A DNA stretch of 64,000 bases from Planctomycetota bacterium (GCA_008501825.1 QQUA01000002.1:232695-296694), one strand, 5' to 3'. Positions 70-31,501 are shown, numbered from the stretch's first letter. Notes: generated by a model from the sequence alone, not told the origin. Translations and numbers: made by a program.

Positions 70-251
70 GGTGTTTGAAGGCTACGAGTCCGCCCAGGGG
101 GCCAGCCTGACTCTACGAAAGGAGTAGAAACCGATTGGCCTGCGGCAACACCCGGTTTGAATTCGTGAGGCTTTCCCGACACCCCCTCGAAATCGGCTTC
201 GCCGGCGCCAAAACCGGCTACCATCGAAGCCCCCTCCCATCCGGAGCTGCC

Positions 252-12113: not shown

Positions 12114-13925
12114 ATGCGTTTCTCCCCACTTCCCCTCATCGCCTGCGCCGGCGCCTTGGGCCTCGGCGCCCTCGCCAGCCTGGACGCGGTCCCTGAGCCC
12201 CTGGAATGGGGTCCCGGGCCGGTTCACCTGCTCCCCTTCGGCCTCATGGACGAGGTCCGGGATCCGGCCTACCAAGTGCCGATGCAGGTCCAGGCTTACC
12301 ACGAAGGCCAGGGAGGGGTTCATTTGCTGGCCCTGGAAGTCTTCGGACCCGGGGGGCAAGAGGTGGACCGCCTCGACCTTCAAGGCGAACGCCTAGAAGG
12401 CGATGACGGCCTGCTGAAGGGTTTCCACCAAATGCTGGAACGCCTGAATCCGGATATCTCCCACCGCCACCGCCAGCGCTTGTTCCTGCCGTTGAAAGAT
12501 CGGCCGAAACTGAGTCCGGAACAGGAAGGAGATCTGCTGCAACAAGTTTTGAAGGAAAGCGAGCGGCTACGGCGGCAAGGGGGCCAGCAGATATCGAACC
12601 TTAAGTTTTCCGTAGACCTGAACCGTTTGTTCCCCATGGACGCCCTGCCGGGAGACTCGGTGCCGTTGGAGATCGTGCTCCATTACGAAGACGCCCAAGG
12701 TCAATCCCAAAGCGTTCGTTACCGGCATGCCGTTCGCCTGTTGCCGCCTTTCCTCGGCCCGCCTTCAGGATGGCAAGCCGGCCGCGGCGGTGGCTTCTGG
12801 GCCACCGGCGACTTGCACGTCCACAATTGCCGCGATCAGGCTCTGTTGGGTTGCCCCAATTGCGCAGCCGAGTCCTTCAACGTCACCGGGGCTTACACCA
12901 ACGCCGATCTGAAGCCGCAGTATCAATCGTTGGGCTTCAGTTTCTTCAGCACCACGACCCACTCTTACTGCATCAATAACGATACCGAATTCCAGTTGAT
13001 TGCTTCGGAAGCGTCCAGCCTGGACGATCCCCAGTTCCAAGTGGTCCTGGGAACGGAATTGACTTGCCGGGAAACCGGGCCGCAGAGTGGCGCGGACATC
13101 AACGACGCCGTTTGCCTGTTGGGCGGAAACTTTTTCACCGGCATCAACCACATGGGCGGCCATTTCCTGCAGACTCGCAAACCCGGCGGCCAAGAAGGTT
13201 TCTTGGACAATTGTGATTCGCCCCTGTACGACCAAAGCGTCAACGTCAGTGAAGTCAATGCCGAAGGCGGTTTCACCATCGCCAACCATCCCGGTGGCGA
13301 CACTATCAGTTTCAATTCGGTCAGTTGGTTTCGCGGATTGGAAAGCGGCCAAGCCCACGGCACCGAAATCTGGAACGGAGGTCAATTCAACGCCAACTTC
13401 GATCACAAGAAGTGGTGGGTCGATCGCCTGTTGGAAGGCAAATTCACTTACCCCTACTCCGGAAGCGACACTCACGACGCCGCGTACAACTTCGGCGCCG
13501 TTCACACTTGGGTGGAGGGCGCTCTAAGCGATCAAAGCCTGAGAGATGCCCTGAAAAGCGGCCGGCACTACTTGAGTAACGGCCCCTTCCTCAGCGGGCG
13601 TTTGTTCGACAATGGCGGCCGCAGCCTGGAAATGGGTCAATACGTGATCGTGGCCGCCTCCTCGGTACCGCCGAACTACCCGGTGTCTTACGAAGTGAGC
13701 TACAACATCGGCACCGATACCGCCGACATTTACGTCTTCCGGGGCACGGTCGGGGACGCCAGTGAGGTGGAAGTTCAAGTCTTCCAAGGCTTGACCGGTT
13801 CGGGAACCGTAACCGCCGTCACCACCGTGCCGACCAACGGCTCCTCCTGGTACCGAGCGGAACTCTCAGGCGCCGGCGGCTCCCTGGCCGCTTACACCTC
13901 GCCGAGCTTCGTAGTGTTGCAGTAA
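12114..13925 (+). CDS. Exported PHP-domain (CehA/McbA-like) metal-dependent phosphoesterase
   Basis: Signal peptide MRFSPLPLIACAGALGLGALA. PHP-like metal-ligand series WATGDLHVHN, TTTHSYC, GTELTC, IANHPGG, GTEIWNG and YSGSDTHD. The C-terminal tail is beta-rich. Confidence 0.6.
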   Translation: MRFSPLPLIACAGALGLGALASLDAVPEPLEWGPGPVHLLPFGLMDEVRDPAYQVPMQVQAYHEGQGGVHLLALEVFGPGGQEVDRLDLQGERLEGDDGLLKGFHQMLERLNPDISHRHRQRLFLPLKDRPKLSPEQEGDLLQQVLKESERLRRQGGQQISNLKFSVDLNRLFPMDALPGDSVPLEIVLHYEDAQGQSQSVRYRHAVRLLPPFLGPPSGWQAGRGGGFWATGDLHVHNCRDQALLGCPNCAAESFNVTGAYTNADLKPQYQSLGFSFFSTTTHSYCINNDTEFQLIASEASSLDDPQFQVVLGTELTCRETGPQSGADINDAVCLLGGNFFTGINHMGGHFLQTRKPGGQEGFLDNCDSPLYDQSVNVSEVNAEGGFTIANHPGGDTISFNSVSWFRGLESGQAHGTEIWNGGQFNANFDHKKWWVDRLLEGKFTYPYSGSDTHDAAYNFGAVHTWVEGALSDQSLRDALKSGRHYLSNGPFLSGRLFDNGGRSLEMGQYVIVAASSVPPNYPVSYEVSYNIGTDTADIYVFRGTVGDASEVEVQVFQGLTGSGTVTAVTTVPTNGSSWYRAELSGAGGSLAAYTSPSFVVLQ

Positions 13926-18249: not shown

Positions 18250-19530
18250 CTATTGGTTTTCTGGATTCGATGCAGGCTGGCTGCGCCATAGAAAAACGCC
18301 GCGTTTGTTGGCGACGGCGATTTCCACCCGGCCGTCGCGATCGAAATCTCCGGCTTGCACCTGGGTTCCCACGCCGGAATCCCGGTGCAGGGTCTTGATC
18401 TCAAAGGCCGCCGGCTTTCCCGGCCGCAAACAAAGCGCCAAGAGCAAAGGAGTGCCGCCAGGGTCCACGTCGCCTTTCGGCCCGTGGGCCCACCAGCGCT
18501 TTCCGGTAATCAAATCGGGCCGCCGGTCGCCATCGACGTCGGCCACCGCCATGGCGTGAAGTTGGGAAATCTTCAAACCGTCCCCGGCTTCGGGTGCAGT
18601 CAAGATCTTTCGTTCTTCGAAACGGATGCGATCTTGGTCCCGCACTTGTCGCCACCAGCTCAAGCCATAGCCATGGGCGTCGTGTCCGGAAAGCACGTCG
18701 GCCAAGCCATCGCCGTCGACGTCGAAGACGAACATCTGGGCTCCGCCGCGGCCCGGGGCAAAAGGAAAGGCATGCCGCTTCCATGGCGGGTCGCCGGCCA
18801 AGGACGCGGGTTGTTGCCACCAAGCGCCTTTCTCCAGGAGATCGGGGCGGCCGTCACCGTCGACGTCGCCGAGACCCAATCCGTGAGTAAAGCGGTGCAA
18901 TCCCAGATCCGGAGAGATCGGATGGAAGACCCATGGCTTTTGGGGTTGCTCCGGATCGAAGGCGGCCCAACCGAAACGCCCGCGGTTTTGGCACAGCAGG
19001 TCTTTTCGACCGTCACCGTTGACGTCGGCAAAGGCGGGAGACTCGTTGTCTACCGAATCCAACGCCTGAAAACGGGACCAGGAGCTTTTCAGCTTCTTTG
19101 GACCCGGATTTCGATACCAATAAGCGGGTTGTCCAGGCACTCCGACTTGCAGCACGTCGGTATGGCCGTCCCCATCGAAATCGTGGAGCCAGCAAAAAAA
19201 AGTATCCGAATAGGCATGGGGGTCAAAAACTTTGCCTGGGCGGAATTCCTGCTTGCGGCCGTCGGGTCCCAGGAACAAAACGTGGCCGGCGACCACGTCC
19301 AAATGCCCGTCCTGATTCAAATCGCCGCAGGCGGCGCCTTCGGCGTAGAACTCCCGGCTTAGGACCTGCATTCCGATCGGCGCCTCACGATCCGATGGAT
19401 CTCGGTGATCCCCTTGATCCCGCGAGTCCAGTTGGGGAACGAAGAGGTGGGCGGCGGCGAGGAAACAAATGGCGACCGGCAAAGCTCGGGAATTATAAGC
19501 CGCGTTCGGACTTGACCATGGATCTACCAT
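18250..19530 (-). CDS. FG-GAP/VCBS repeat (beta-propeller) protein
   Basis: Seven Ca-binding-type repeats: DLNQDGHLDVV, DFDGDGHTDVL, DVNGDGRKDLL, DVDGDGRPDLL, DVDGDGLADVL, DVDGDRRPDLI and DFDRDGRVEIAV. The start is set at ATG 19530 (MVDPW...), just before a hydrophobic signal segment. It lies 15 nt upstream of the thioesterase gene. Confidence 0.8.
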   Translation of the reverse strand: MVDPWSSPNAAYNSRALPVAICFLAAAHLFVPQLDSRDQGDHRDPSDREAPIGMQVLSREFYAEGAACGDLNQDGHLDVVAGHVLFLGPDGRKQEFRPGKVFDPHAYSDTFFCWLHDFDGDGHTDVLQVGVPGQPAYWYRNPGPKKLKSSWSRFQALDSVDNESPAFADVNGDGRKDLLCQNRGRFGWAAFDPEQPQKPWVFHPISPDLGLHRFTHGLGLGDVDGDGRPDLLEKGAWWQQPASLAGDPPWKRHAFPFAPGRGGAQMFVFDVDGDGLADVLSGHDAHGYGLSWWRQVRDQDRIRFEERKILTAPEAGDGLKISQLHAMAVADVDGDRRPDLITGKRWWAHGPKGDVDPGGTPLLLALCLRPGKPAAFEIKTLHRDSGVGTQVQAGDFDRDGRVEIAVANKRGVFLWRSQPASNPENQ

Positions 19531-19564
19531 GAGTCCCGACTTCCCCTCCCGCCGCCCTCCTGTC

Positions 19565-20416
19565 ATGAAGCTCATTCGTTTCGGCCCCCCGACCGCGGAA
19601 AAGCCGGGTTTCATCGATCCCCAAGGCCAACGTAGAGATTGCTCCACTTTGGTATCCGACTGGGATCGGACCTACTTTCAAACCCATGGCCGCGACGCCA
19701 TGCAAGCAATGCAAGCCCAATGGCAGGACCTTCCCGTGGTGGAAGACTCCGAGCGCTGGGCGTCGCCGATTGCGCGGCCGGGAAAAGTGCTTTGCATCGG
19801 CTTGAATTACCGCGAACACGCCGCTGAATCCGGCTTGGAAATTCCCCCGGAGCCGGTGATCTTCATGAAAGCGGCGAACACCGTCATCGGTCCCTACGAT
19901 CCGGTCTGGATTCCCCGCGGCAGTCAGAAGACCGATTGGGAAGTCGAGTTGGCGGTGGTCCTTGGGAAGGACGCCCGTTATTTGAAGGACGAAGCGGAAG
20001 CCATGGCCCACGTCGCCGGATATTGCATATCCAACGACGTTTCCGAGCGGGAATTCCAATTAGAGCGACAAGGCCAGTGGACCAAAGGCAAGAGCTGCGA
20101 CCATTTCAACCCTCTCGGTCCTTGGTTGGCCACCGCCGATGAGATTCCCGATCCACAGGATCTGCATTTGGAATGTCGGGTAAACCAACGAATCATGCAA
20201 AAGGCCCACACCGGGGACATGGCCTTTTCGGTGGCCGCGATCGTGTTGTATCTGTCCCAGTTCATGACCTTGGAAGCCGGAGATTTAATCAATACGGGAA
20301 CCCCTTCCGGAGTTGGGCTGGGGCAAGATCCGCCTTTGTATTTGAAAGCAGGAGATCAAATGGAATTGAGCATCGATCACCTGGGTTGCCAGCAGCAAAG
20401 CTGCGAGGAGGCTTGA
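19565..20416 (+). CDS. Fumarylacetoacetate hydrolase (FAH) family protein
   Basis: MKLIRFG start. KVLCIGLNYREHA, DWEVELAVVLGK, GYCISNDVSERE and DLINTGTPSGVG are typical of FAH-family hydrolases/decarboxylases. Confidence 0.85.
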   Translation: MKLIRFGPPTAEKPGFIDPQGQRRDCSTLVSDWDRTYFQTHGRDAMQAMQAQWQDLPVVEDSERWASPIARPGKVLCIGLNYREHAAESGLEIPPEPVIFMKAANTVIGPYDPVWIPRGSQKTDWEVELAVVLGKDARYLKDEAEAMAHVAGYCISNDVSEREFQLERQGQWTKGKSCDHFNPLGPWLATADEIPDPQDLHLECRVNQRIMQKAHTGDMAFSVAAIVLYLSQFMTLEAGDLINTGTPSGVGLGQDPPLYLKAGDQMELSIDHLGCQQQSCEEA

Positions 20417-20417
20417 A

Positions 20418-21269
20418 TTGAGCCTTCCCGCTCTGGTCGACGCCCACCTTCATCTTTGGGACCCGGAAGTTCTGCACTATTCCTGGTTGGAAAAGTTGCC
20501 GGAACTGAATCGGGCCTTTTCCATGGCCGATCTCGACCGGGAATTGCAAGGCATCGAAGTGGAAGCGGCGGTATTCGTGCAATGCGATTGTTCCGCCGAA
20601 CAAGGTGAAGCCGAAGTCGATTGGGTCACGACATTGGCCGGCGAGGATGCCCGAATTCAAGGCATCGTCGCCTTTGCTCCTTTGGAATCAGATTGCATCG
20701 AGCAACTGCGCCGCTATTGCGATCATTCCTTGGTCAAGGGCGTGCGCCGGCTTCTGCAGGACGAAGACGATCTCGATTTCATTCTCCAACCGCCCTTTCT
20801 GCCATCGCTTCGGGCTTTGGCCGATCTGGACCTCAGCTTCGATCTGTGTATCCGCCACCCGCAAATGCCGGCGGCAACGGAATTGATCCGGCAGTGCCCG
20901 GAAGTTTCCTTCGTGCTCGATCACGCCGGAAAGCCGGGGATTCGCGATCAGCTTTTGCAGCCCTGGACCGAACACTTGCGGGCCATGGCGGAACTACCGA
21001 ACGTGGTGTGCAAACTCTCCGGTTTGTTAACCGAAGCCGACCCGAATCGCTGGCGTCCGGCCGATCTTCGGCCCTATGTTCAAACGATCCTGGACAGCTT
21101 CGGCGAGAATCGGGTGCTTTACGGCGGCGACTGGCCGGTCATGCGCTTGGCCGGACGCTATCCGAATTGGCCCGCCACTTTGGATCGCCTCCTCGGCGAC
21201 CTGCCGGAGCCGGCTCGCCAGGCGATTTTTTCTGAAAACGCCCGGCGGGTTTATCGCTTGACTCCTTAA
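20418..21269 (+). CDS. Amidohydrolase-2 family protein (lactonase/decarboxylase-type metal hydrolase)
   Basis: LVDAHLHLWDP N-terminal metal motif, FVLDHAGKP and VLYGGDWPV. The TTG start lies 1 nt after the FAH stop. Confidence 0.75.
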   Translation: MSLPALVDAHLHLWDPEVLHYSWLEKLPELNRAFSMADLDRELQGIEVEAAVFVQCDCSAEQGEAEVDWVTTLAGEDARIQGIVAFAPLESDCIEQLRRYCDHSLVKGVRRLLQDEDDLDFILQPPFLPSLRALADLDLSFDLCIRHPQMPAATELIRQCPEVSFVLDHAGKPGIRDQLLQPWTEHLRAMAELPNVVCKLSGLLTEADPNRWRPADLRPYVQTILDSFGENRVLYGGDWPVMRLAGRYPNWPATLDRLLGDLPEPARQAIFSENARRVYRLTP

Positions 21270-24200
21270 GTGGACGGCTTGATCCGACGACTCGCGGCTT
21301 TCTTTGCCCGGCCGGCGGCTTCCGGAACCTCGGCCGGTTTCCCGGCGACGAAAAACGGTCGCCGCATGATGTGTTGCTGGTGGTACGGGAACATGGCGGA
21401 AAAGAATTCGCTCCACCCGCCCATTCGCACTCGAACCAAATCGTATTTTTCCGGGAAGCGGGCCGCCCCCTGAAAGGTCTCGGTATTGCCGCAGGTCACG
21501 GTCATCAAGTTGGACCCCAGGCGACCTTGGGCGAAGCGGCGCAACACTTCCACCAACTCGGATTGAGGAAACTCTTCGTGGATGTTCAGGTCTACCGGAG
21601 CTGCGTTGGACAAGCCGAAATTGATGGCCGGCAGGTTCCAATCTTGCAAAGCTTCGAAGATGTTCCGGGGATCTTGCTGGATCGGCAAATCCTGGGGCGA
21701 AGGAGCCGGGCTGAAATCATCGGCGATCGGCTCTCCCATCAGGCGACCGTCGGCGGAGGCTCCCATGCCGACCCCGAGACCGACGTTGTCTTCGAAGGTG
21801 CCGACTCCCGGAGTGACGGTAAAAGCGAACGGACGTTCCTTGCTCCCGTATTTCTCCTTCAGCTTGCCATAGGCTTCCTCAATGGCGGGAATCGGATCTT
21901 GCAGGGCTCGATGGACTTCGGCTACGCAACGCTCCACCACCTGAGACGCCAATTCCACCAGCTTCGGTTCTTGCCCTTGCCCGAACTTGGGTAACTGCAA
22001 GGCGGTTTTTCGAAGGGCCTTGAAGCGTTGAGCTCTTTCCGCCGCCCGCTCCGGGCCGGCCAATCGATTGAAAAAGGGCTCGATCATGTTCTCGCCCCAA
22101 TTGCACTGCAGGCACAACAAGAATTCCGGCAGAGTGGTTACGGCGGTATTGCGGTCGTACACCATCTTCTTCACCGCATACAAGGCATCGATGGTGTTGG
22201 TAATGCCGCACAGCATCGGTGCCACGATGTGATAGCGAGCTCCGCCATCGGTCATGTCGCGACCGGTGTCCAGACAATCATGCACCATGGAAGAAAATAG
22301 CGGGCTGGGACAAACCGGTGCCAGGTCTCCGTATCCGTTCATCAAGGTGTTAAAGAATTGATTGATGGTCCAGCGCCAGTGGGTAAAGAAGATCTCCAAG
22401 AACTCTTCAAAGGAGTCGATTTCCTCGGCCGGTGGCGAGTTCCAGGATTGCTTCAAACCGCGCAGGTGCAGAGGACCCGCTCCTTCAATGGTGGCTCCCT
22501 GGTTCATGGCCATGCCCACCAGAGGAAGAATCGGGGTATAGCTGAACGCCCATTCCGTTTTGCCGGGAATGATCGGCTCGTAGCAACCGTCGCTGGCGTA
22601 GTCGCGAGCATCGGCCAATTGCAGCGGCCCGCTTTCCATCAGAGCCGGAATCAACTTATCGTCCTGCAACAAAACCGGATGAGCCCCGCCGCTTAACAAC
22701 GCTTTGGCTGCTTCCTGGAGATATTCCTCCCCGATCTGGCCATGGACTCGGAGAGATAGGCAAGGTGCGTTCATCGGCAACCTTCTTGCCGCCCGCAAGC
22801 ACATCATGGTCACTTCATTGCAAGCGTCCTGTGGCTGATCGGAATTGTCCGCCACGGTTCCTCCGACCGTAAGTTGCTGCACCCATTGATTGATGGCGGC
22901 CCCTTGAGGGAAATTTCCGGCTGAATAAAACACCGCACCGGTGCCATAGTTCAGATAGTCGTTAAGGTGCTTGCGGTCGAACAGGACGGTCTCGTCCATT
23001 TTCAACCAAAACGCATCGATGATTTCTTGAGCGGAGGCGGGATCCAAAATGCCGGCCGCCACATCTTCGCGGTAGCTGTCAATCAAGAGTTGATCCAATC
23101 GCCCGATGGACATCGGTTCACCGGTCTGATGCAAGGCGCAATTGATCAAGAAAATCAGTTGCAAGGAATCGAGGAAGCCTTCCGGCTTCTGCCAGCAAAT
23201 TCTCTTCAATCGATGGTGAATTTGAATCAGGTTTTCTCGAGCTTTCACTTCGCTCTTGGGAAGTTCCTCGGCACGCCGTTTGGCTTGATCGGCATAGGCG
23301 TTGATGAAGGAAGCCAGGCCTTCCAGAGCCCAAAGCACGGCTTGGTAGAATTCTCGTTGCTGATCTTGAGCATTTTCCATCTTTTTGCCATAAGCGGCAT
23401 GCAAACCTCCAATGCCTTCGGCCAGCACCCAAGCGTAATCCGGGACGTTGTGGCCGGTGGCGGAATACTCGTTGAGGTTGCCGAAGAAAGCGGTCAAGCG
23501 CTCATCCTCGTGCAGATATTCCATGACTTGAGTTCCAATGCCCAAGGAAAGCTGGGGCATATTCCCGACGATGATTTCCTGAGGGGTGATCAAAAACAAG
23601 TTCGCCTTGATCGAATAGGATTTGCTGACCAGGACCTTGGACAAGGATAATTGCACCGATTTCGCCTTTCGCAGCATGACGGGAGCTTCCAAAATCCAGG
23701 CTTCATCCGGATCCAAATGATCTCGCAAATGGCCGAGCGGCGGGGTTTGCCGCTTCCGGTACCACCCGTCGTGCCAGCGTGAAAACTGATCGCCCAATAA
23801 GTGTAGGATGCGATCGCTGAGCGGGAAATCATCCGCATCTTGCTGCTTCCCCCTGGCGTAGAGGAAGTCTTTGGCGTTATAGAACATCAAGCCGTTCCGG
23901 CTGCGGACTTGGAAATATTCCGGCAACGGAATTCGGAAGTCTCCTTCGGCGGTCGGAAGTTGCAATTCCTTAGCCGAGGGGACGTACCAAAAATTGCCGG
24001 CTTGAGAATGACTGACGTTCATCAATTTGTCTTTGATGAAGCCCTGCTCCGGCCCGACCATGCCTTGGATCAGGTCATCGAATACGGCGCTGGATTTGGC
24101 ATAGGCGGCGAAATAGACTCCCTGCTCCTCTCCCGGATTGGAAGCTTCCGCTCCGAAGGGGAGAGCTTGCCGCATCAAACGATCGTTTATCCTCTCCTCG

Positions 24201-24898
24201 TTCAGTTGGCGCACGCATTTGATGTGGCTGCGGTCGTCCTCGATCGCCAGCAACATGTCGTCTTCATCCCGGCCGATCATGTCCTCTTTGTCCAGCTCGC
24301 TCATGTCCCGCAGCCGCCTCCAATTGTGGACGAATTTCTGCGAGATGGCGAAACAAGAGCCACGGTGATTTGGATCTTCTTCCCCAACCATGACTCGTGC
24401 GGATAAGTTCACCGGATCGACCGGATTGATCAAAGCATCGGTAAAACGGCCGCCCAACACCCGGCCTCCCGGGCGCTTGGCCGCCAAGGTGAATTGTTTT
24501 TCATCTACCAGCTCACCGAGCTCTTGTTGGATCACTTCGAAAAGCCCTTTGCATTCGCTCGGTTCATTGGACTTGACGTGAAACCAAAGATCGCCGCCGC
24601 TTTCTTGAAAGGGCGGATGATATTCGGCCAACAGCCGAGTGGTGCCCATTCCCGCCGGGCGTTCCCATCCCAGCTCATGCCCCCACGCTTGCCACAACGG
24701 AAAGGCGACCCCGCGGATTACGACCGTTTGATAGTCCGTGGAAGCACAATAGCGATCGGTGACCTGAGCCAAGTTCAAAAACGCCTCATAGCTCTTTTTT
24801 GGCGGCGTCTTTTTCAAACTAAAGGTCCCGAAGAGACCGTATTCGGGAAAATAAGGGAGGCCGATTTGACCCAAACGAAGGCTCAGTTCTTGGCTCAT
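21266..24898 (-). CDS. Fusion protein: N-terminal DyP-type peroxidase domain plus C-terminal glycyl-radical enzyme (PFL-like)
   Basis: DyP-like landmarks in aa ~1-345: GGDLWFHVKSN, RFTDALINPVDP (GxxDG-region Asp, D154), MIGRDEDD, SHIKCVR (candidate proximal His225), RLMRQALPFG (Arg243) and GVYFAAYAKS. GRE landmarks in aa ~440-1180: Cys loop SDGCYEPIIPGK (C772, nt 22583-22585), ASADGRLMGEPIADDFSP, and the Gly-radical fingerprint LVRVRMGGWSEFFSAMFPYHQQHIMRR (G1161, nt 21416-21418). Confidence 0.85.
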   Translation of the reverse strand: MSQELSLRLGQIGLPYFPEYGLFGTFSLKKTPPKKSYEAFLNLAQVTDRYCASTDYQTVVIRGVAFPLWQAWGHELGWERPAGMGTTRLLAEYHPPFQESGGDLWFHVKSNEPSECKGLFEVIQQELGELVDEKQFTLAAKRPGGRVLGGRFTDALINPVDPVNLSARVMVGEEDPNHRGSCFAISQKFVHNWRRLRDMSELDKEDMIGRDEDDMLLAIEDDRSHIKCVRQLNEERINDRLMRQALPFGAEASNPGEEQGVYFAAYAKSSAVFDDLIQGMVGPEQGFIKDKLMNVSHSQAGNFWYVPSAKELQLPTAEGDFRIPLPEYFQVRSRNGLMFYNAKDFLYARGKQQDADDFPLSDRILHLLGDQFSRWHDGWYRKRQTPPLGHLRDHLDPDEAWILEAPVMLRKAKSVQLSLSKVLVSKSYSIKANLFLITPQEIIVGNMPQLSLGIGTQVMEYLHEDERLTAFFGNLNEYSATGHNVPDYAWVLAEGIGGLHAAYGKKMENAQDQQREFYQAVLWALEGLASFINAYADQAKRRAEELPKSEVKARENLIQIHHRLKRICWQKPEGFLDSLQLIFLINCALHQTGEPMSIGRLDQLLIDSYREDVAAGILDPASAQEIIDAFWLKMDETVLFDRKHLNDYLNYGTGAVFYSAGNFPQGAAINQWVQQLTVGGTVADNSDQPQDACNEVTMMCLRAARRLPMNAPCLSLRVHGQIGEEYLQEAAKALLSGGAHPVLLQDDKLIPALMESGPLQLADARDYASDGCYEPIIPGKTEWAFSYTPILPLVGMAMNQGATIEGAGPLHLRGLKQSWNSPPAEEIDSFEEFLEIFFTHWRWTINQFFNTLMNGYGDLAPVCPSPLFSSMVHDCLDTGRDMTDGGARYHIVAPMLCGITNTIDALYAVKKMVYDRNTAVTTLPEFLLCLQCNWGENMIEPFFNRLAGPERAAERAQRFKALRKTALQLPKFGQGQEPKLVELASQVVERCVAEVHRALQDPIPAIEEAYGKLKEKYGSKERPFAFTVTPGVGTFEDNVGLGVGMGASADGRLMGEPIADDFSPAPSPQDLPIQQDPRNIFEALQDWNLPAINFGLSNAAPVDLNIHEEFPQSELVEVLRRFAQGRLGSNLMTVTCGNTETFQGAARFPEKYDLVRVRMGGWSEFFSAMFPYHQQHIMRRPFFVAGKPAEVPEAAGRAKKAASRRIKPST

Positions 24899-25147
24899 GC
24901 CAGGTCCTAGTTTCGAGGGGTACGAGCCTAAAGCAGCACGGAAATTGAATAGGATCCGAGCGGCCCAGGCAAGCTGGGAAAGGAGGAGACGCCAGTCCGG
25001 TTTAAATCAAGGGTGGCTACTTCTATCTTTCGGCTGGAGCGGGTGATCCTGCCGGAAAAAATTCAACTTCCTGAATTCCTTAAAAAAAGATTAAGGCTTC
25101 CAAACCTGTTTCCAAGGAGATCTCCCCGAAACAGGAACGAATTACAT

Positions 25148-25189
25148 GAAAAAAACTTGTAGGCCGAGTTTTTACAAAAAACCCGGCCC
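25148..25189 (-). terminator. Hairpin terminator after the oxidoreductase gene
   Basis: On the minus strand: GGCCGGGTTTTT-TGT-AAAAACTCGGCC (one G-U), then TACAAG and a run of 7 T. Confidence 0.45.
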
Positions 25190-25220
25190 ACGATGTTCTT
25201 GGTTGGAAGCGAAGCGAGGT

Positions 25221-26657
25221 CTAACCGAGGCGGCTAGGAACCACGTAGGGCTCCCGATAAGCTCGGGTCAGCAAGGCGTTTGCTTGATCGGCCATAGCCC
25301 CGTGGAAAGCCTCCTTTTCCGAGTGGAAAGCCAAAAGAGGCCCGTACTGCACCTTCCATTGATCGGCGTTCAAACCGTTCGCCAACAAGTGTTCGCGAGT
25401 TCGGGCCACCGAATCGTTGGCTTCCTGATGACCGGCGAAAGGTTCCAAGGTGTCAGACAGACTGCGAGCTTGACCCAAGCGGTAGGAAATATTTCCCAAA
25501 TGGCATAGAGCGCTGGACCAATGACCTTCCAAGATCGGCGCCGTCAAGCGATTGGAATCTTCGGCCTTGATCGCGTCCAGGAAGTTTTGGAAATGATTGG
25601 CGTCGCCGGTGAAAGTTTTGATCACCTTGCCGTCGTGATCGAAAGCCTGCAGCTTGCCGTAACTGGCGCTGACCAAATAACCGTGTTCGCCGTAGAAAAT
25701 CACGCCGATGTGAGCTCCGCGATAAGCGTCGGTTTTCAAGCCGCGGACTTCGAAGATGATTTGCTTTTCGCCGTAATCATAAAGAGCGATTTGGGTGTTG
25801 GGAGTATTGCCGTCGTCGACGTAGCCGACGCGGCCGCCCCAACTTTGTACCCGTTTCGGCAGGCCCTTCAGGTCCAAACCCCAACGGGCGATGTCCATTT
25901 GGTGCACGCCCTGGTTGCCGAGGTCGCCGTTTCCGGTTTCAAAGACCCAATGCCAGTCGTAATGGAGATTCTTGCGCATCAGCGGCTGCATCGCCGCCGG
26001 GCCGGTCCACAAATCGTAGTCCAGACTTTCCGGCACTTGCTGCGGGCCGGCCACCTTGCCGATCGAATTGCGCCGCTTGTAGCACAGAGCCCGAGCCAAG
26101 CGGACTTCCCCGAGACCACCACTCTGGAGCCAGGCAATGGCTTCGCGGGTGGCGGTGGCGGACCGGGATTGGGTGCCATGCTGGACGATGCGGCCGTACC
26201 GCTTGGCGGCTTCCACCACCTGCCGGCCTTCGAAGACGTTGTGGCTGACCGGTTTCTCGACGTAAACGTGCTTGCCGGCTTGCAGCGCCCAAATCGCCGC
26301 CAGGGAATGCCAATGATTCGGCGTCGCAATCGACACCGCGTCAATGTCGGGAGCCTCGAGCAGCTTCCGTAAATCTTTGTAATACCTGGCCTTGGGCACC
26401 GACTTCATGGCCGGTCCGATGACTCCCTGATCGGCATCGCAGATCGCCACGACGTCGGCATCGGGAGACTGCTTCCAGGCGCCAATGTGGCCGCGCCCAC
26501 GTCCACGCACGCCGATAACCGCTAACCCCAGGCGGTCGTTCGGCCGCCGCTTCCGGCGTTTTTCGGCGGCGCCGAGAGCCGGGGTCCAGGGAGTGGCCGC
26601 CGCAGCGGCCGCGAGCAAACTTTGCTCAAGGAAAGTCCGTCGGGAGGGGCGTGCCAT
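25221..26657 (-). CDS. Gfo/Idh/MocA-family oxidoreductase with a twin-arginine signal
   Basis: TAT-like N terminus MARPSRRTFLEQSLLAAAAAA. Rossmann segment LGLAVIGVRGRGRGH. VSIATPNHWH and VYVEKPVSHN are typical of the family. Confidence 0.9.
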   Translation of the reverse strand: MARPSRRTFLEQSLLAAAAAATPWTPALGAAEKRRKRRPNDRLGLAVIGVRGRGRGHIGAWKQSPDADVVAICDADQGVIGPAMKSVPKARYYKDLRKLLEAPDIDAVSIATPNHWHSLAAIWALQAGKHVYVEKPVSHNVFEGRQVVEAAKRYGRIVQHGTQSRSATATREAIAWLQSGGLGEVRLARALCYKRRNSIGKVAGPQQVPESLDYDLWTGPAAMQPLMRKNLHYDWHWVFETGNGDLGNQGVHQMDIARWGLDLKGLPKRVQSWGGRVGYVDDGNTPNTQIALYDYGEKQIIFEVRGLKTDAYRGAHIGVIFYGEHGYLVSASYGKLQAFDHDGKVIKTFTGDANHFQNFLDAIKAEDSNRLTAPILEGHWSSALCHLGNISYRLGQARSLSDTLEPFAGHQEANDSVARTREHLLANGLNADQWKVQYGPLLAFHSEKEAFHGAMADQANALLTRAYREPYVVPSRLG

Positions 26658-26743: not shown

Positions 26744-27559
26744 CTATTGGGCTTGTGAAGTCCCCTCTTCCGGCCCTTCTCGCAGAATGCGGAAGCCGAG
26801 GTGGTTGCCGTCGGGGATCCACCAAACGCCGGGGGGGAAATTGGGGTCCTTCAAGGTCCAGTCTTCGTCGAAGCCTAAACGGTTTTCCGGGGTCAGTTGA
26901 TCGGCGGTGTCTTTCCAGGAACCGCCGCGCAGCACCGCCCGTTCCGAATCGCTTGGGTCATAAGGATTGCCGCAATATTCCCAAAGATTGCCAAGGACGT
27001 CGTACAAACCATGTTCGTTGGCCGCCTTTTGTCCGACTTCCTGGGATTTCTCCTCGCTGTTGTCGGCGAACCAAGCTCGATCGGCCAAAGGACCGCTTCC
27101 GCCCTGGCCGCAAGCCATCTGCCATTCCTCTTCGGTCGGCAAGCGATAGCGATGGCCGGTATTCATCGACAGCCATTCGCAATATTTTTTGGCTGCGTTC
27201 CAACTCATGCCTACTGCCGGCCTTCGGCCGACGCCCCAGTTGTGGTCGTAGGGCACCCAATCCAAAGGCTTGGACGGCTTGCTGACTGCATCGGCGTCCG
27301 GCGGCACTTCCCCCTTCTGTTCAAAATCGCAGTACAGCAAATATTCATCCCAGGTGACCTCGGTACGGCCGATCCAAAAGCCGCCTTGGTCAATCCAAAC
27401 CATGTCGAATTCGACCGTGGAGCCTTGAATGCTTTCGGTGTAGTGAAGGGATGCCTCTCCATCCTCCTCATCAGCCGAAGCCGAGGAATCGGAGCAAGCC
27501 ACGATCGAGAAGCTGAGAGCGAAGGCAAAAAGACAGGCGCGGAGGGAAGCCATGAGCAT
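26744..27559 (-). CDS. Formylglycine-generating-enzyme (SUMF1/EgtB/PvdO) family lipoprotein
   Basis: Lipobox IVAC. RPAVGMSWNAAKKYCEWLS, YRLPTEEEW, GLYDVLGNLWEYC and VLRGGSW are typical of the FGE-sulfatase domain. Confidence 0.85.
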   Translation of the reverse strand: MLMASLRACLFAFALSFSIVACSDSSASADEEDGEASLHYTESIQGSTVEFDMVWIDQGGFWIGRTEVTWDEYLLYCDFEQKGEVPPDADAVSKPSKPLDWVPYDHNWGVGRRPAVGMSWNAAKKYCEWLSMNTGHRYRLPTEEEWQMACGQGGSGPLADRAWFADNSEEKSQEVGQKAANEHGLYDVLGNLWEYCGNPYDPSDSERAVLRGGSWKDTADQLTPENRLGFDEDWTLKDPNFPPGVWWIPDGNHLGFRILREGPEEGTSQAQ

Positions 27560-27617: not shown

Positions 27618-28436
27618 TCAGGAACCGGCGAATTCAGCCAAGCGGGTTTTCAATTCGGCCAGGAAGTCTTCCCGAACTTGCCGCTCCAACCACGGGTAAT
27701 GGCCGCATTCAGGCCACTCCCGATATTCCAATTGAGGCAAAACCGGCCGCAAGGAATCGCGAATCGGTCCTCCAGGGTGAGGATCCTCGGCGCCGTGGAT
27801 CATCCACACCGGACATGCAATGTTTTGAAATGCGGCCGGATATCGGCCTTCCTGCTGCAATCGAAGCATGTCCTGCCAACTTTCGCGGTGAGCCTGGGCG
27901 TCGCAAGCCGGCAAAGGAAAGGAGATGGCCGCATCTTGGATCAGATCGACCGAAAAAATCGGCAACAAAAGCTCTCCCATCCGGGCCAAGGCTTCATCGG
28001 CTTTCGCATCCTCCGCGGGCAGGCCGGATAATTCCTGATGCACCGGTTCGGTCATTCTGTATTCAAGATTTCGTTCGAACATCCGGCGGGCTCGCTCATC
28101 GAAGGTGCCGCAAGCTACCAGGATCAAAGCCTTCGGCAGCTTTGGAAATTGGGCGGCGAAAACCAAGGCCAACATCGCGCCCCAGGAATGGCCGAGCAAA
28201 ATCGGCGCAGCCGGCGATTCCATCGAACGTACCAATTCGGCCAAGTCCTGGACATGGCGCTCGACCGTTAAAGGAAGAGCTCCCGCACCTCTTTGCCAGG
28301 GTTCCCAAACCTGAAAGGAATCCGCTAAGGCTTGAGCCAATGGAGCGAGATATCCGGGCGCTCCAGGCCCACCGTGGATCAGCACGACAGGCGGACCCGT
28401 TTCGCCGTAGCGGTCGCCCTGGAATGCGGTCACCAC
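27618..28436 (-). CDS. Alpha/beta-fold hydrolase (proline-iminopeptidase-like)
   Basis: [12 protein letters not shown] and the nucleophile elbow LLGHSWGAM. The track ORF start (28559) overlaps the GH95 gene by 130 nt, and there is no internal ATG. A GTG at 28436 sits just after the GH95 stop, so the start is uncertain. Confidence 0.7.
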
Positions 28437-31400
28437 TGGGTAATCGCCAGCAATTGATATTCCGATGACGGCTCCAGTTCCAAAGCCAATAGACCCGGTT
28501 CCAAACGCACGCTTTCCACCGCCAAGCCATCGCGCCGTACTTGCAATTCTTGGCGACAACGAAGCAGGACCTTCCTGGCTCTAGGGCCGGACCGCAACAC
28601 CCCACTCACGAGGTGGCCGTTGCGCCAGCGGAGATCCAACTCCAAATCACCTCGAGCCCGGAAACCGCGCAATTCGCCGTCGCTCCAAGCCTTCGGAAGG
28701 GCCGGCAACAAGTGCAGCTCTCCGGCGTGGCTTTGTAGCAGCATTTCGGCTATTCCGGCCGTGCCACCGAAGTTGCCGTCGATTTGAAACGGCGGATGGT
28801 TGTCGAACAAATTGGGCAAGGTCGATTTCGCCAGCAAGGCTTGTAGATTGTCGAAGGCCGCCTCGCCGTCGAACAAACGGGCCCAGAAATTGATGATCCA
28901 GGCTCGGCTCCATCCGGTGTGGCCGCCGCCGTGGCGCAACCGCTCGTCCAAGGTTCGGCGAACCGCTTCGGCCAATTCCGGCGTGCGTAACGGATGGATT
29001 TCCCATCCCGGGTGCAAGCCATAGAGATGGGACATGTGGCGGTGACCAGGTTCCGCCTCTTTGAACTCTCGCGGCCATTCCAAGATTCTTCCGTCGGAAC
29101 CGATCCGAGTTGGAGCCAATCGCCCCAAGGCCGCTCCAACTTCCCGGGTAAAGGCGTTTTCAATCGCCAATTCGGCTGCCGCCTGCAAGGTGTGGGCGAA
29201 CAACTCCCGGACGATTTGCTGATTCATGGTCGGCCCCATCACCGCGTGGGCCCGAATCGGTCGTAGGGCTTGTTCAATCTCCTGCATTTCCCGCCTTAGT
29301 GGAGCTTTGGCCGCATCCATGCTGCGGTGGTAGTCGGCAAGGACTTCCCGTTCCTTGCCAGACCGGGAAGCCGGCGATTTTTGCAAGGCCGCTTGCACCG
29401 GCCAGGGCCAATCCGCCGACAGCATTTGAAAGGCAAATCCACTGGCGCCGCCGTTGTTGACCACTTTCAGTAATAGCTGGTTGCTTCCTTCTTGAAGTTG
29501 GACGCGCACCCGATCCTGATCCAAGGCGGCTCCTCGATACACCTCCCGAGCCAAGACTTCTTCCCCATTCCACCAAACTTTCAAACAGTCATCACTGCCC
29601 AGCGCCAACACGGCTTCGCCGGCTTGAGGCGCCACGATATCTCGCCTCAAGTAAAACGCCCCAAGACTGGAACCAAGAGAATGGACTTGGCCGTCGCGCC
29701 ACTGAGGCCGAGTCTGCCAAGTCGCCGCAGCCGGATTTTGTTCCACCGGAAAAACTTTGCCGAAGGCTTCTTTGCCGGTTTTCGCCGGGAAGGGTCCACA
29801 TAACTGCCACGGAGAGGGCTCGGTTTTCAAGGCCGCGGCTTCCAGCACTTTCGTTCGACTGCTTTCCAGCCATTGCCGGCGAGAAGCGAGCAAACTTTCA
29901 TCTTCGTTTTGATATTCGGTTTGCAACTCGGCCAGCCTCCGGCGCAAATCCACTTCCTTCCCCTGCACCTCCGGGTTCAACACCAAAAAACTGTTTTCCG
30001 GTGAGATGGAAGGCCCGCAAACCAACCAGCCGGTTTCCGGATCTTCGCACAAATAATCCAGGAAGAACTGAGAGGCTCCTTGCAAGGTCGGCCAGACCCG
30101 CTTGCGCAGAAATTCCCGGTCCAAACCGAAACGGTAGTGTTCCCACAAGTGGCGGGAAGACCACGCCCCACCGGTGGGCCATAGCCCGTATTGGGTGGCG
30201 CCAATCGGACTGCTGAAAGCCCATGCATCGGAAACGTGGTGCGCCACCCAGCCGCGACAGCCATATAAATCCTTAGCCGTAGCGGTTCCGCTTGCTTCCA
30301 GAGCTTCCATCCAATCGAACAAGGGTTGATGGCACTCGGCCAGATTGGTGACTTCCGCCGGCCAATAGTTCATTTGCAAATTAATGTTGATGTGATAGTC
30401 CGCATTCCAAGGTGCATCCATGTGATAGTTCCAAAGTCCCTGCAAATTTGCCGGCATGCAACCGGGCCGACTGGAACCGATCAGCAAATAGCGGCCGAAT
30501 TGAAAATAGAGCTCGTGCAACTGAGGATCGACGGCGCCGGCCTTGACTTGGGCCAGGCGTTGGTCGGTAGCCAAGCCCTGAGGAGCCGCCCCAAGGTCCA
30601 GGGAGCAGCGACGGAACAAACGGCGATGTTCCCTAACGCTGGCTGCCAGCATGGCATCGAATTCCAATCCGTCTGCCAGGGCCAAATCGGCGGCGGCGGC
30701 CGTGGCCGGATCCGCACCGCGATAGTCGGTGGCGGCGGCAAGCCGAATCAAGAATTCGCTTGTCCCTTTTATCTCGATCCCGGTCGGCGTAGGCCATACA
30801 CGACCGCCTTGGTGCTGCATCGCCATCACCGCGGCGAAGCGCACTCCCTCATGTTCTTCGCCGCGATCGGCCTGACCGAGAAACAGCCAGGATTTTTCGG
30901 ACAAGGGAAGAGAAGTGAAGTGCTCCTGACGATCCATCCGCACACGGCAGTGCAAACCGTCGGGATGGTCGGTAGTGACGCGCAGGACCAGTTGCTGGTG
31001 AACCGGGCTGGCGAAGAGTTCCCGCCGGTAGTTCCGCCCTTCATGGCTGAACGCCACCACCGCCAAGCCGCGATCCAAATCCAAGGAGCGGCGGTAGTTT
31101 TGGACCTCTTCGATGCCTTCGAATTGCAGCCAAAGGTCAGCCAAACTCTGGTGGCTGCGAACCCAACGGGGCCCCATGAATTCCCGCTGCATCAAAGCCT
31201 GGCCTTCGGCATATCGTCCGGCAAAGAACAGCGAACGGGCTTGCTCCAGGTATTGATGGGCGCCAACCCGATCGCGGCTAACCTTTTTTCCCGCCCAAAG
31301 AGAATCCTCGTTGAGTTGCAGCCGCTCTTGCTCCACGTCGCCGAAGATCATGGCGCCGAGGCGGCCGTTTCCCACCGGAAGTGCCTCGGTCCAGGCGGAA

Positions 31401-31501
31401 GCGGGCTGCCGGTACCAAAGCTCTAGATCGGAAAAAGCGTCGCCGGCCTCCTGAGGCTGGAAGCCGGCGAGAATGAGCAAAGGGAGGAGGGAGGGGAGCA
31501 T
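28430..31501 (-). CDS. GH95 alpha-L-fucosidase with a large internal insertion
   Basis: GH95 landmarks [58 protein letters not shown] and [13 protein letters not shown]. The protein is 1023 aa, and ~245 extra residues (aa ~506-752) sit between SPENSF and TMNQQI. Confidence 0.9.

Follow-up and report, generated by a model that had tools for sequence, protein, structure and literature searches.

A DyP-type haem peroxidase fused to a glycyl-radical enzyme in a Planctomycetota genome: a widespread, uncharacterised family that may be primed by peroxide

The Fusion Gene and Its Two Domains

A stretch of 64,000 nucleotides from a Planctomycetota bacterium (GCA_008501825.1, QQUA01000002.1:232695-296694; hereafter the window, with positions counted from its first letter) contains a gene whose product joins an N-terminal DyP-type haem peroxidase to a C-terminal glycyl-radical enzyme (GRE). 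The gene is a single uninterrupted open reading frame (ORF) on the minus strand at 21266-24898, which opens with ATG and runs for 1210 codons before the stop codon, and these are exactly the coordinates given in an earlier note on this DNA, which had left the strand unstated. The motifs quoted in that note were likewise all found at the residue numbers it gave, namely GGDLWFHVKSN at residues 101-111, RFTDALINP at 151-159 (D154), SHIKCVR (H225), and RLMRQALPFG (R243) in the peroxidase half, and G-C772-Y-E774-P, ASADGR, and VRVRMG-G1161-WSEFF in the GRE half. The features of the gene are as follows:

21266..24898, minus strand: DyP-GRE fusion protein, complete 1210-aa ORF (ATG at 24898-24896, TAA stop at 21268-21266)
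23939..24898, minus strand: DyP-type haem peroxidase domain, class P/B, residues ~1-320
24437..24439, minus strand: Asp154, distal catalytic Asp, in RFTDALINP, a variant of the GxxDGxxNP motif
24224..24226, minus strand: His225, predicted proximal haem ligand
24170..24172, minus strand: Arg243, distal Arg
23489..23938, minus strand: junction and N-terminal helical part of the GRE fold, residues 321-470, with invariant Y340, F372, W375, and W379
21599..23488, minus strand: ten-stranded barrel core of the GRE, residues 471-1100, from the Pfam PFL-like match and Foldseek
23450..23452, minus strand: His483, active-site His position of diol-dehydratase-type GREs (G-H motif)
22874..22981, minus strand: clade-specific insert, residues 640-675 (...YGTGAVFYSAGNFPQGAAINQWVQQ), a loop before the QQLTVGG strand, absent from ordinary GREs
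22577..22585, minus strand: Cys loop, C772-Y773-E774
21344..21598, minus strand: glycyl-radical domain, residues 1101-1185, with the loop R1158-M-G1160-G1161-W1162 (Gly1161 at 21416-21418)

The N-terminal domain is matched above cut-off by Pfam Dyp_perox_C (PF20628) over residues 152-310 (E 7e-17; 62.1 bits against a cut-off of 20) and by the NCBIfam model TIGR01413 (Dyp) over residues 53-311 (114 bits against 100.5), and its best solved relatives are DypB and the encapsulin-type DyPs. A phmmer alignment to solved DyPs places Asp154, His225, and Arg243 on Asp153, His226, and Arg244 of DypB, which bears out the distal Asp, proximal His, and Arg proposed in the earlier note. Across an alignment of 185 family members, from which all residue counts given here are taken, His225 is kept in 185/185 and Arg243 in 176/185, and position 154 is occupied by Asp in 146 sequences, Glu in 30, and His in 9. 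The likeness to DypB of Rhodococcus jostii and to the encapsulin-cargo DyPs of class P/B is seen both in the profile matches and in pairwise alignments over residues ~70-313; the window protein differs from them in that it has no encapsulin targeting tail, its C terminus continues into an 870-aa GRE, its GxxDG motif reads RFTDA, and Asn246 of DypB is not kept. The N terminus shows neither a signal peptide nor a twin-arginine motif, and the gene product is tentatively proposed, with somewhat less than even confidence, to be a cytoplasmic, self-contained radical enzyme.

The C-terminal half is matched by Pfam PFL-like (PF02901) over residues 469-997 (E 6e-97; 326 bits). The Pfam Gly_radical model remains sub-threshold in the window protein, and none of the listed family members from the protein search carries this annotation. 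Of the profile matches foreseen in the earlier note, Dyp_perox at the N terminus and PFL-like at the C terminus were thus recovered, while Gly_radical was not, and Gly1161 was placed by alignment instead. A GrcA model (NCBIfam) matches weakly at residues 1114-1183, TIGR01774 scores 239.5 bits against a subfamily cut-off of 678.2, and the equivalog models for CutC, HypD, HpfG/HpsG, and PFL all match yet fall far under their cut-offs. The protein belongs to DyP class P/B by profile and to the GRE superfamily by its PFL-like barrel, its Cys, and its Gly.

The GRE residues were assigned in a MAFFT alignment with Escherichia coli PflB and YbiW (from loci L086 and L087), with which the PDB alignments agree. 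Cys772 lies on PflB Cys419 and YbiW C441, Glu774 on YbiW E443, and Gly1161 on PflB Gly734 and YbiW Gly786, in line with the earlier description of a complete GRE with a Cys loop and a radical Gly. His483 aligns with YbiW H165 and, in the PDB alignments, with the G-H motif His of glycerol dehydratase and of 1,2-propanediol dehydratase (presumably H164 and H166, respectively). These positions hardly vary in the family, with H483 kept in 185/185, C772 in 183/185, E774 in 184/185, G1161 in 183/185, and W1162 in 182/185. The C-x-E loop that had been described as eliminase-type is thus present as G771-C772-Y-E774 and is accompanied by the G-H motif, and from the alignment Cys772 is predicted to be the thiyl-radical Cys and Glu774 the general base of an eliminase.

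Other positions set the family apart from ordinary GREs. The residue between Cys and Glu is aromatic (Tyr in 147 members, Phe in 34, and Trp in 3), where ordinary GREs carry Val or Ile, and Asp770 is invariant in the family. The insert at residues 640-675 aligns with a gap in PflB, YbiW, and ordinary GREs and is the most conserved segment, with 31% of its positions conserved at 95% or more against 17% for the barrel. Asp770, the aromatic residue 773, and the conserved insert would together mark a distinct active site. The known eliminase GREs (glycerol dehydratase 1r8w, 1,2-propanediol dehydratase 5i2a/5i2g, CutC, and PflD/YbiW) have in common with the window protein the full fold (Foldseek E 3e-37, TMt 0.77-0.79), the G-C-x-E loop, the G-H His, and a Gly in an R-x-x-G-aromatic loop. 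However, the two are only 17-23% identical, the Gly loop is R-M-G-G-W in the window protein and R-V-A-G-Y in the eliminases, and the window protein has the aromatic residue in its Cys loop, a conserved insert of ~20 residues, and Phe785 where glycerol dehydratase has Asp447. The window family also differs from them in its fused haem domain, in having no adjacent activase, and in being hosted mostly by genera that we take to be aerobes.

The AlphaFold2 model, for which 49 aligned sequences were used, shows a single body at high confidence (pLDDT 89.3, pTM 0.91), with pLDDT mostly 86-96 in the DyP domain, and confidence is low only in the loop 652-664 within the insert (pLDDT <50), in the Gly loop 1161-1170, and in the C-terminal tail. 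A Foldseek search of this model against the PDB returned ordinary GREs only, with no solved structure of a fused DyP-GRE; the best match was 1,2-propanediol dehydratase 5i2g (E 3.4e-37, TMt 0.77), followed by CutC, glycerol dehydratase, and PflD/YbiW at 17-23% identity over ~900 columns. Because these ~900 columns align with whole GRE chains of ~800 aa, the GRE half (residues ~330-1190) is of full length, and the architecture is that of two domains, a class-P/B DyP (~1-320) and a full-length GRE fold (~330-1190).

Earlier Records of the Architecture

Fusions of this kind have been recorded before. A "fused DyP B-PFL" was reported in Chaetomium with a 2014 encyclopaedia entry cited for its wider occurrence, and in culture the fused gene showed 3-fold induction with H2O2 and 18.5-fold induction with peracetic acid (Zamocky et al., 2016; PMC5041501). 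Similarly, gene g1956 of Xylaria grammica was described as a DyP-PFL fusion in 2021 (PMC8469222), and a "DyP subclass P2" was defined in 2022 and termed unexplored, with the proposal that the DyP shields PFL and its activase from H2O2 (Sugano/Yoshida, 2022; PMC9719856). The P2 fusions have the same N-terminal class-P/B DyP and C-terminal PFL-like region in ~1200 aa, and nothing in the window protein differs from them in kind. The searchable literature holds catalogue-level mentions only, with no substrate, structure, mechanism, or function for DyP-PFL fusions, and the words haem, peroxidase, fusion, and fused are all absent from a comprehensive 2026 review of GREs (PMC13450708). That the earlier note knew of no characterised member agrees with the searchable literature, but the architecture itself had been on record since 2016, and the idea of a built-in peroxide guard was not a fresh one either (PMC9719856). 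The window gene thus joins a catalogued, uncharacterised family, and what is new here is the residue census, the activase contrast, the second DyP class, and the phosphoesterase-type neighbours.

Breadth and Conservation of the Family

A protein search returned more than 110 clusters of full-length, collinear DyP plus PFL proteins at 37-59% identity and 97-99% coverage, followed by ordinary GREs at 27-28% identity. Overall, full-length collinear homologues are 37-62% identical over 97-99% of the length and are annotated as "Dyp-type peroxidase," and a scan with one genome per species found a relative of the fusion encoded in at least 195 species genomes. The hosts, as taken from 80 loci fetched out of the 195 genomes, include marine Gammaproteobacteria, Burkholderiales (Ralstonia, Paraburkholderia, Janthinobacterium, Massilia), Pseudomonas cichorii, Myxococcota, Actinomycetota, cyanobacteria, Bacteroidota, Verrucomicrobiota, Planctomycetota, Gemmatimonadota, and Chloroflexota, with Archangium, Cystobacter, Corallococcus, Saccharothrix, Actinosynnema, and Anabaena also among the named genera, most of which we take to be aerobes. 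The pairwise identities of the two halves are correlated (r = 0.94), which indicates that they evolve as one unit, and the GRE half is the more conserved (mean identity 52%, against 39% for the DyP half). Read from the alignment of 185 members, both predicted active sites are almost invariant, a pattern of strong purifying selection. Fungi also carry the DyP-PFL fusion (PMC5041501).

A dead DyP or a dead GRE domain was rejected, since residue conservation and the alignments to known enzymes argue against it. The possibility that the ORF is an assembly chimera, or the product of a frameshift joining two genes, had been raised for the junction and is given next to no credence, since the two domains co-evolve and full-length homologues with the domains in collinear order are known from at least 195 species genomes of many phyla and from more than 100 metagenomic clusters. 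The one observation in its favour is a relative (L088) that is split at the domain boundary. There, one in-frame TAA codon stands where the fusion has Tyr328 (L088:1230-1270) and divides the sequence into a DyP gene of 345 aa and a PFL-like gene of 856 aa, with a conserved Met (M338) just downstream of the TAA and with the gene order DyP-GRE-DNase II-phosphoesterase retained; the split may reflect an error in sequencing, a pseudogene, or a true two-subunit form. Longer representatives were also seen (P0128-P0144, 1300-1836 aa), as was a match from an assembly of the shrimp Halocaridina rubra (P0116), which suggests that the family has members in eukaryotes or with additional fused parts. In the alignment the Gly loop seems to be missing from P0116, perhaps through a gene-model error.

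Activase Genes and DyP-Less Relatives

To our knowledge, every characterised GRE is treated as anaerobic and as dependent on a dedicated radical S-adenosylmethionine (SAM) activase. Activase genes were sought in all six-frame ORFs with a CxxxCxxC regular expression and with phmmer queries of E. coli PflA and YbiY, in 85 family loci (83 distinct, with flanks of up to 10 kb) and the window, 1.7 Mb in all. No CxxxCxxC radical-SAM ORF was found in the 64-kb window, as the earlier note had reported, the two chance matches to the motif each being overlapped by a larger or Pfam-supported ORF on the opposite strand, and the phmmer search of the window was also empty. A GRE activase was present within up to 10 kb in 0/84 distinct fused loci, the window included (E ≤ 0.01; best E 2.7 with filters off), and other radical-SAM genes, MoaA/MiaB-like and unrelated, occur in a handful of loci only.

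An exhaustive search with the GRE half resolved three layers of matches, with fused proteins at ~450-1150 bits for full-length members, DyP-less proteins at 240-340 bits, and ordinary GREs at ~150-180 bits. The middle layer contains the closest DyP-less relatives, which are uncharacterised stand-alone GREs of 750-840 aa with 29-36% identity (P0152-P0165) and are referred to here as GGW-loop GREs. These proteins, the fused family, and a second fused clade described below share an R-x-G-G-W loop (rarely with F or L), the G-H motif, a Cys loop that reads DGC[Y/W]E, or AGCWE in the case of the second clade, and an inserted loop that closes with N-x-[WF]-[VLI]-Q-[QN], and ordinary GREs have none of these features. 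The stand-alone proteins thus carry the same R-x-G-G-W, DGCWE, G-H, and N-x-W-[LV]-Q elements as the window family but lack the DyP, and in three of the five loci examined (L089, L091, L092, L093, and L094) a GRE activase gene directly adjoins them. It lies upstream in L092 (E 2.8e-28 to YbiY) and downstream in L093 (E 1.6e-45), and in L094 it is a 320-aa Radical_SAM+Fer4 gene. Activase adjacency therefore stands at 3/5 in DyP-less loci vs 0/85 in fused loci (Fisher p about 9e-5). The detection method is valid, because phmmer finds the activases of L092 and L093, and the GGW-type loop is compatible with classical activation, because the DyP-less sisters have adjacent activases. In L089, which has no adjacent activase, the GRE gene is overlapped by a gene for a Rieske [2Fe-2S] protein, followed by short-chain dehydrogenase/reductase (SDR) and aldehyde dehydrogenase genes.

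The second, distant fused clade is represented by P0164 (L090:6001-9912) and P0178, proteins of ~1300 aa whose DyP is of class V, with AnaPX (5c2i; E 2.4e-77) and then DyP2 (4g2c) as the best PDB matches. Between this DyP and the class-P DyP of the window protein, BLASTP detected no similarity (E 0.27), and a rough neighbour-joining tree places P0159, a stand-alone GRE with a linked activase gene, between the two fused clades. Given the different DyP class and the placement of P0159, two independent recruitments are the simplest reading, and the DyP-GRE fusion probably happened twice, with two DyP classes.

Phosphoesterase-Type Neighbours

At least one phosphoesterase-type neighbour is present in 31/83 loci and in 17/29 of those closest to the window protein, and it is often encoded by the same strand, no more than 200 bp away (for example, L007:13718-16169, L016:13726-16172, L006:13646-16214, L062:13586-16153, and L088:3908-6479). 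The recurrent Pfam matches among 91 same-strand adjacent genes in 68 loci are Phosphoesterase PF04185 (12) and DUF2608 (8), with PLD-like, DNase II, and Endonuclease_NS genes as further scattered neighbours, and Radical_SAM families are absent from the recurrent matches of this set. The PF04185 neighbour has plant non-specific phospholipase C4 as its best PDB match (E 1.8e-54), and the DUF2608 neighbour carries a HAD-type DDDDT motif. These neighbours suggest a link of the fusion family to the salvage of phospholipid or DNA phosphoesters, although the locus of the window itself has no phosphoesterase-type neighbour. Control by the Pho regulon found no support, as an E. coli-type Pho box (CTGTCATnnnnCTGTCAT, ≤3 mismatches) is not enriched upstream of the fusions (two observed vs two expected, and none in the window).

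A protein of ~430 aa lies directly downstream of the fusion in L024 (13681-14964), L052 (13619-14875), and six other loci from beta- and gammaproteobacteria. It has no Pfam match and no sequence match in the PDB, and its RHVEAHP motif hints at a histidine-phosphatase-like fold. The sequences read for this protein and for the DUF2608 neighbour have signal-peptide-like N-termini.

A Proposed Peroxide-Primed Radical Enzyme and Its Alternatives

The reading that we favour, at a little under even confidence, is that haem and peroxide generate the protein radical in place of a radical-SAM activase. In this scheme compound I would arise at the DyP haem on reaction with H2O2 or an organic peroxide, and the oxidising equivalent would hop through conserved Trp and Tyr residues into the GRE half, giving a radical at Gly1161/Cys772; W69, W72, W193, W375, W379, W672, W934, and W1162 are invariant candidates for such a relay. 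The DyP domain would thereby perform the job of the activase and could re-prime the enzyme in oxygen-exposed cells, and the thiyl radical would then drive a 1,2-elimination (as a dehydratase or lyase) on a small beta-hydroxy substrate, with the use of His483 and Glu774. DyPs form surface Tyr and Trp radicals by long-range electron transfer, and class I ribonucleotide reductase works by transfer from a Tyr radical to a Cys radical. By analogy and not homology, the proposed logic resembles that of prostaglandin H synthase and class Ia ribonucleotide reductase, in which a haem or metal oxidant makes an amino-acid radical that is relayed to a distant site and abstracts a substrate hydrogen, and the relation to ordinary GREs may be likened to that of class I to class III ribonucleotide reductase. 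A low-confidence guess for the substrate is a lipid head-group or a phosphoester-salvage product (of choline, ethanolamine, or glycerol type), because relatives are so often encoded beside phospholipase-C-like, HAD-like, and DNase II genes. In its full extent, the proposal is of radical-SAM-independent, peroxide-primed GREs in oxygen-exposed bacteria, fungi, and possibly invertebrates, which would have arisen on two or more occasions, with different DyP classes, and may function in the salvage of phospholipid head-groups or phosphoesters, and in that form it is advanced as doubtful.

The invariance of both sites, the co-evolution of the halves, the breadth of hosts, the activase contrast, the second DyP class, the single-body model, the peroxide induction of the fungal gene, and the radical chemistry established for DyPs and class I ribonucleotide reductase are counted in favour of peroxide priming. 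Several points weigh against it. Glycyl radicals are cleaved by O2, and a long-lived Gly radical is problematic in aerobes. The Gly loop has low model confidence (pLDDT 52), and two of the five DyP-less sister loci also have no adjacent activase. Many of the locus flanks are short, and an activase could be encoded elsewhere in the genome, the search having covered the flanks of the loci. A few hosts are anaerobes by name (Desulfobacca and metagenome-assembled genomes of Methanosarcinales and Scalindua), and a putative PFL activase is encoded elsewhere in the Chaetomium genome (PMC5041501).

Of the three options in the earlier note, the unconventional route of radical generation is the one favoured by the comparative sequence data, while the guard and the sensor are kept as rivals. 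Under the guard explanation, the GRE is activated by an activase encoded elsewhere and is used at low oxygen, and the DyP removes H2O2 to protect the radical and the Fe-S cluster of the activase (PMC9719856). We consider it unlikely, even though the Gly and Cys loops have stayed canonical, adjacent activases serve sister GREs that carry these loops, and both the anaerobic hosts and the putative fungal activase just named would fit it, as would the peroxide induction of the fungal gene (PMC5041501). Set against these are the 0/84 fused loci with an adjacent activase compared with 3/5 sister loci, and the two classes of DyP that have been recruited, never a catalase or a peroxiredoxin, are hard to fit to a generic protection. 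In addition, most named host genera are presumably aerobes, O2 and not H2O2 destroys glycyl radicals, and a peroxidase also needs a reducing co-substrate.

It is less probable still that the protein is a two-step bifunctional enzyme or a non-radical GRE scaffold, in which successive or independent reactions take place, no radical is passed, and the Gly and Cys loops are structural; the GRE-like half might, for instance, bind or convert a compound and hand its product to the peroxidase for oxidation. Tight co-evolution and a confident single-body model would fit any obligate partnership, and a substrate site peculiar to the family and common to its members is indicated by the conserved insert (640-675) and by the aromatic residue 773; however, near-invariant G1161, C772, and E774 over so wide a phylogenetic distance are unexpected for a dead radical site, and we know of no non-radical activity of the GRE fold. 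Very improbable, finally, is a haem-based sensor, in which the DyP would sense O2, H2O2, or NO and gate the GRE domain without catalysis. The covalent coupling and the fungal peroxide induction are all that speak for it, whereas a pure sensor would have no use for the full peroxidase triad of distal Asp/Glu, distal Arg, and proximal His that is conserved here, and the source of the radical would be left unexplained.

If a fused haem peroxidase does install or renew the radical, peroxide priming would constitute a third route to a catalytic protein radical in the GRE fold, would account for GRE-like genes being common in eukaryotes and in genera that we take to be aerobes, and would offer an activase-free, possibly oxygen-tolerant GRE scaffold for biocatalysis. 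Even under the guard explanation, this is a large and conserved family (at least 195 species genomes) that has no assigned function, and the recurrent phosphoesterase-type link points to an unrecognised step of nutrient salvage.

Genomic Context in the Window

The fusion gene is its own transcription unit, as its monocistronic look had suggested. The gap on its 5' side, which had been put at about 320 bp, is 322 bp and holds a terminator-like hairpin (25191-25159) with a 15-bp stem and a T-run, just past the stop codon of the upstream GFO/IDH/MocA gene, and on the other side the stop codon shares the TTAA at 21266-21269 with the stop of a convergent gene, as had been noted. Neither a sigma-70 consensus promoter nor an E. 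coli-type Pho box was found in the 322-bp region. The surrounding features are as follows:

24899..25220, minus strand: 5' intergenic region of the fusion gene, 322 bp
25221-26657, minus strand: GFO/IDH/MocA oxidoreductase, best NCBIfam match glycoside 3-dehydrogenase (sub-cut-off)
26744-27559, minus strand: FGE-sulfatase-family protein, two genes upstream of the fusion
28430-31501, minus strand: GH95
19529-21269, plus strand: two convergent genes, best matches 2,4-didehydro-3-deoxy-L-rhamnonate hydrolase and L-fucono-1,5-lactonase, both under the equivalog cut-offs
12114-13925, plus strand: 603-aa ORF with no Pfam match
5081-7420, plus strand: GH29 alpha-L-fucosidase with a 3-keto-disaccharide hydrolase domain
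135-2678, plus strand: GH127 beta-L-arabinofuranosidase-like protein

The FGE-type family is O2-dependent, and the presence of such a gene hints that the host is exposed to oxygen. The neighbourhood had been called fucosidase-rich, and GH29, GH95, and GH127 genes are indeed present, but the 1,2-propanediol-type substrate that was proposed from it was not supported. The neighbouring genes match an oxidative, non-phosphorylative route for deoxy-hexoses (fucose or rhamnose), which leads to pyruvate and lactate and not to propanediol, the gene context is shared by 0/83 homologous loci, and Phe785 occupies the position of the diol-binding Asp447 of glycerol dehydratase. Glycan-degrading regions of this kind are typical of Verrucomicrobiota or Planctomycetota.

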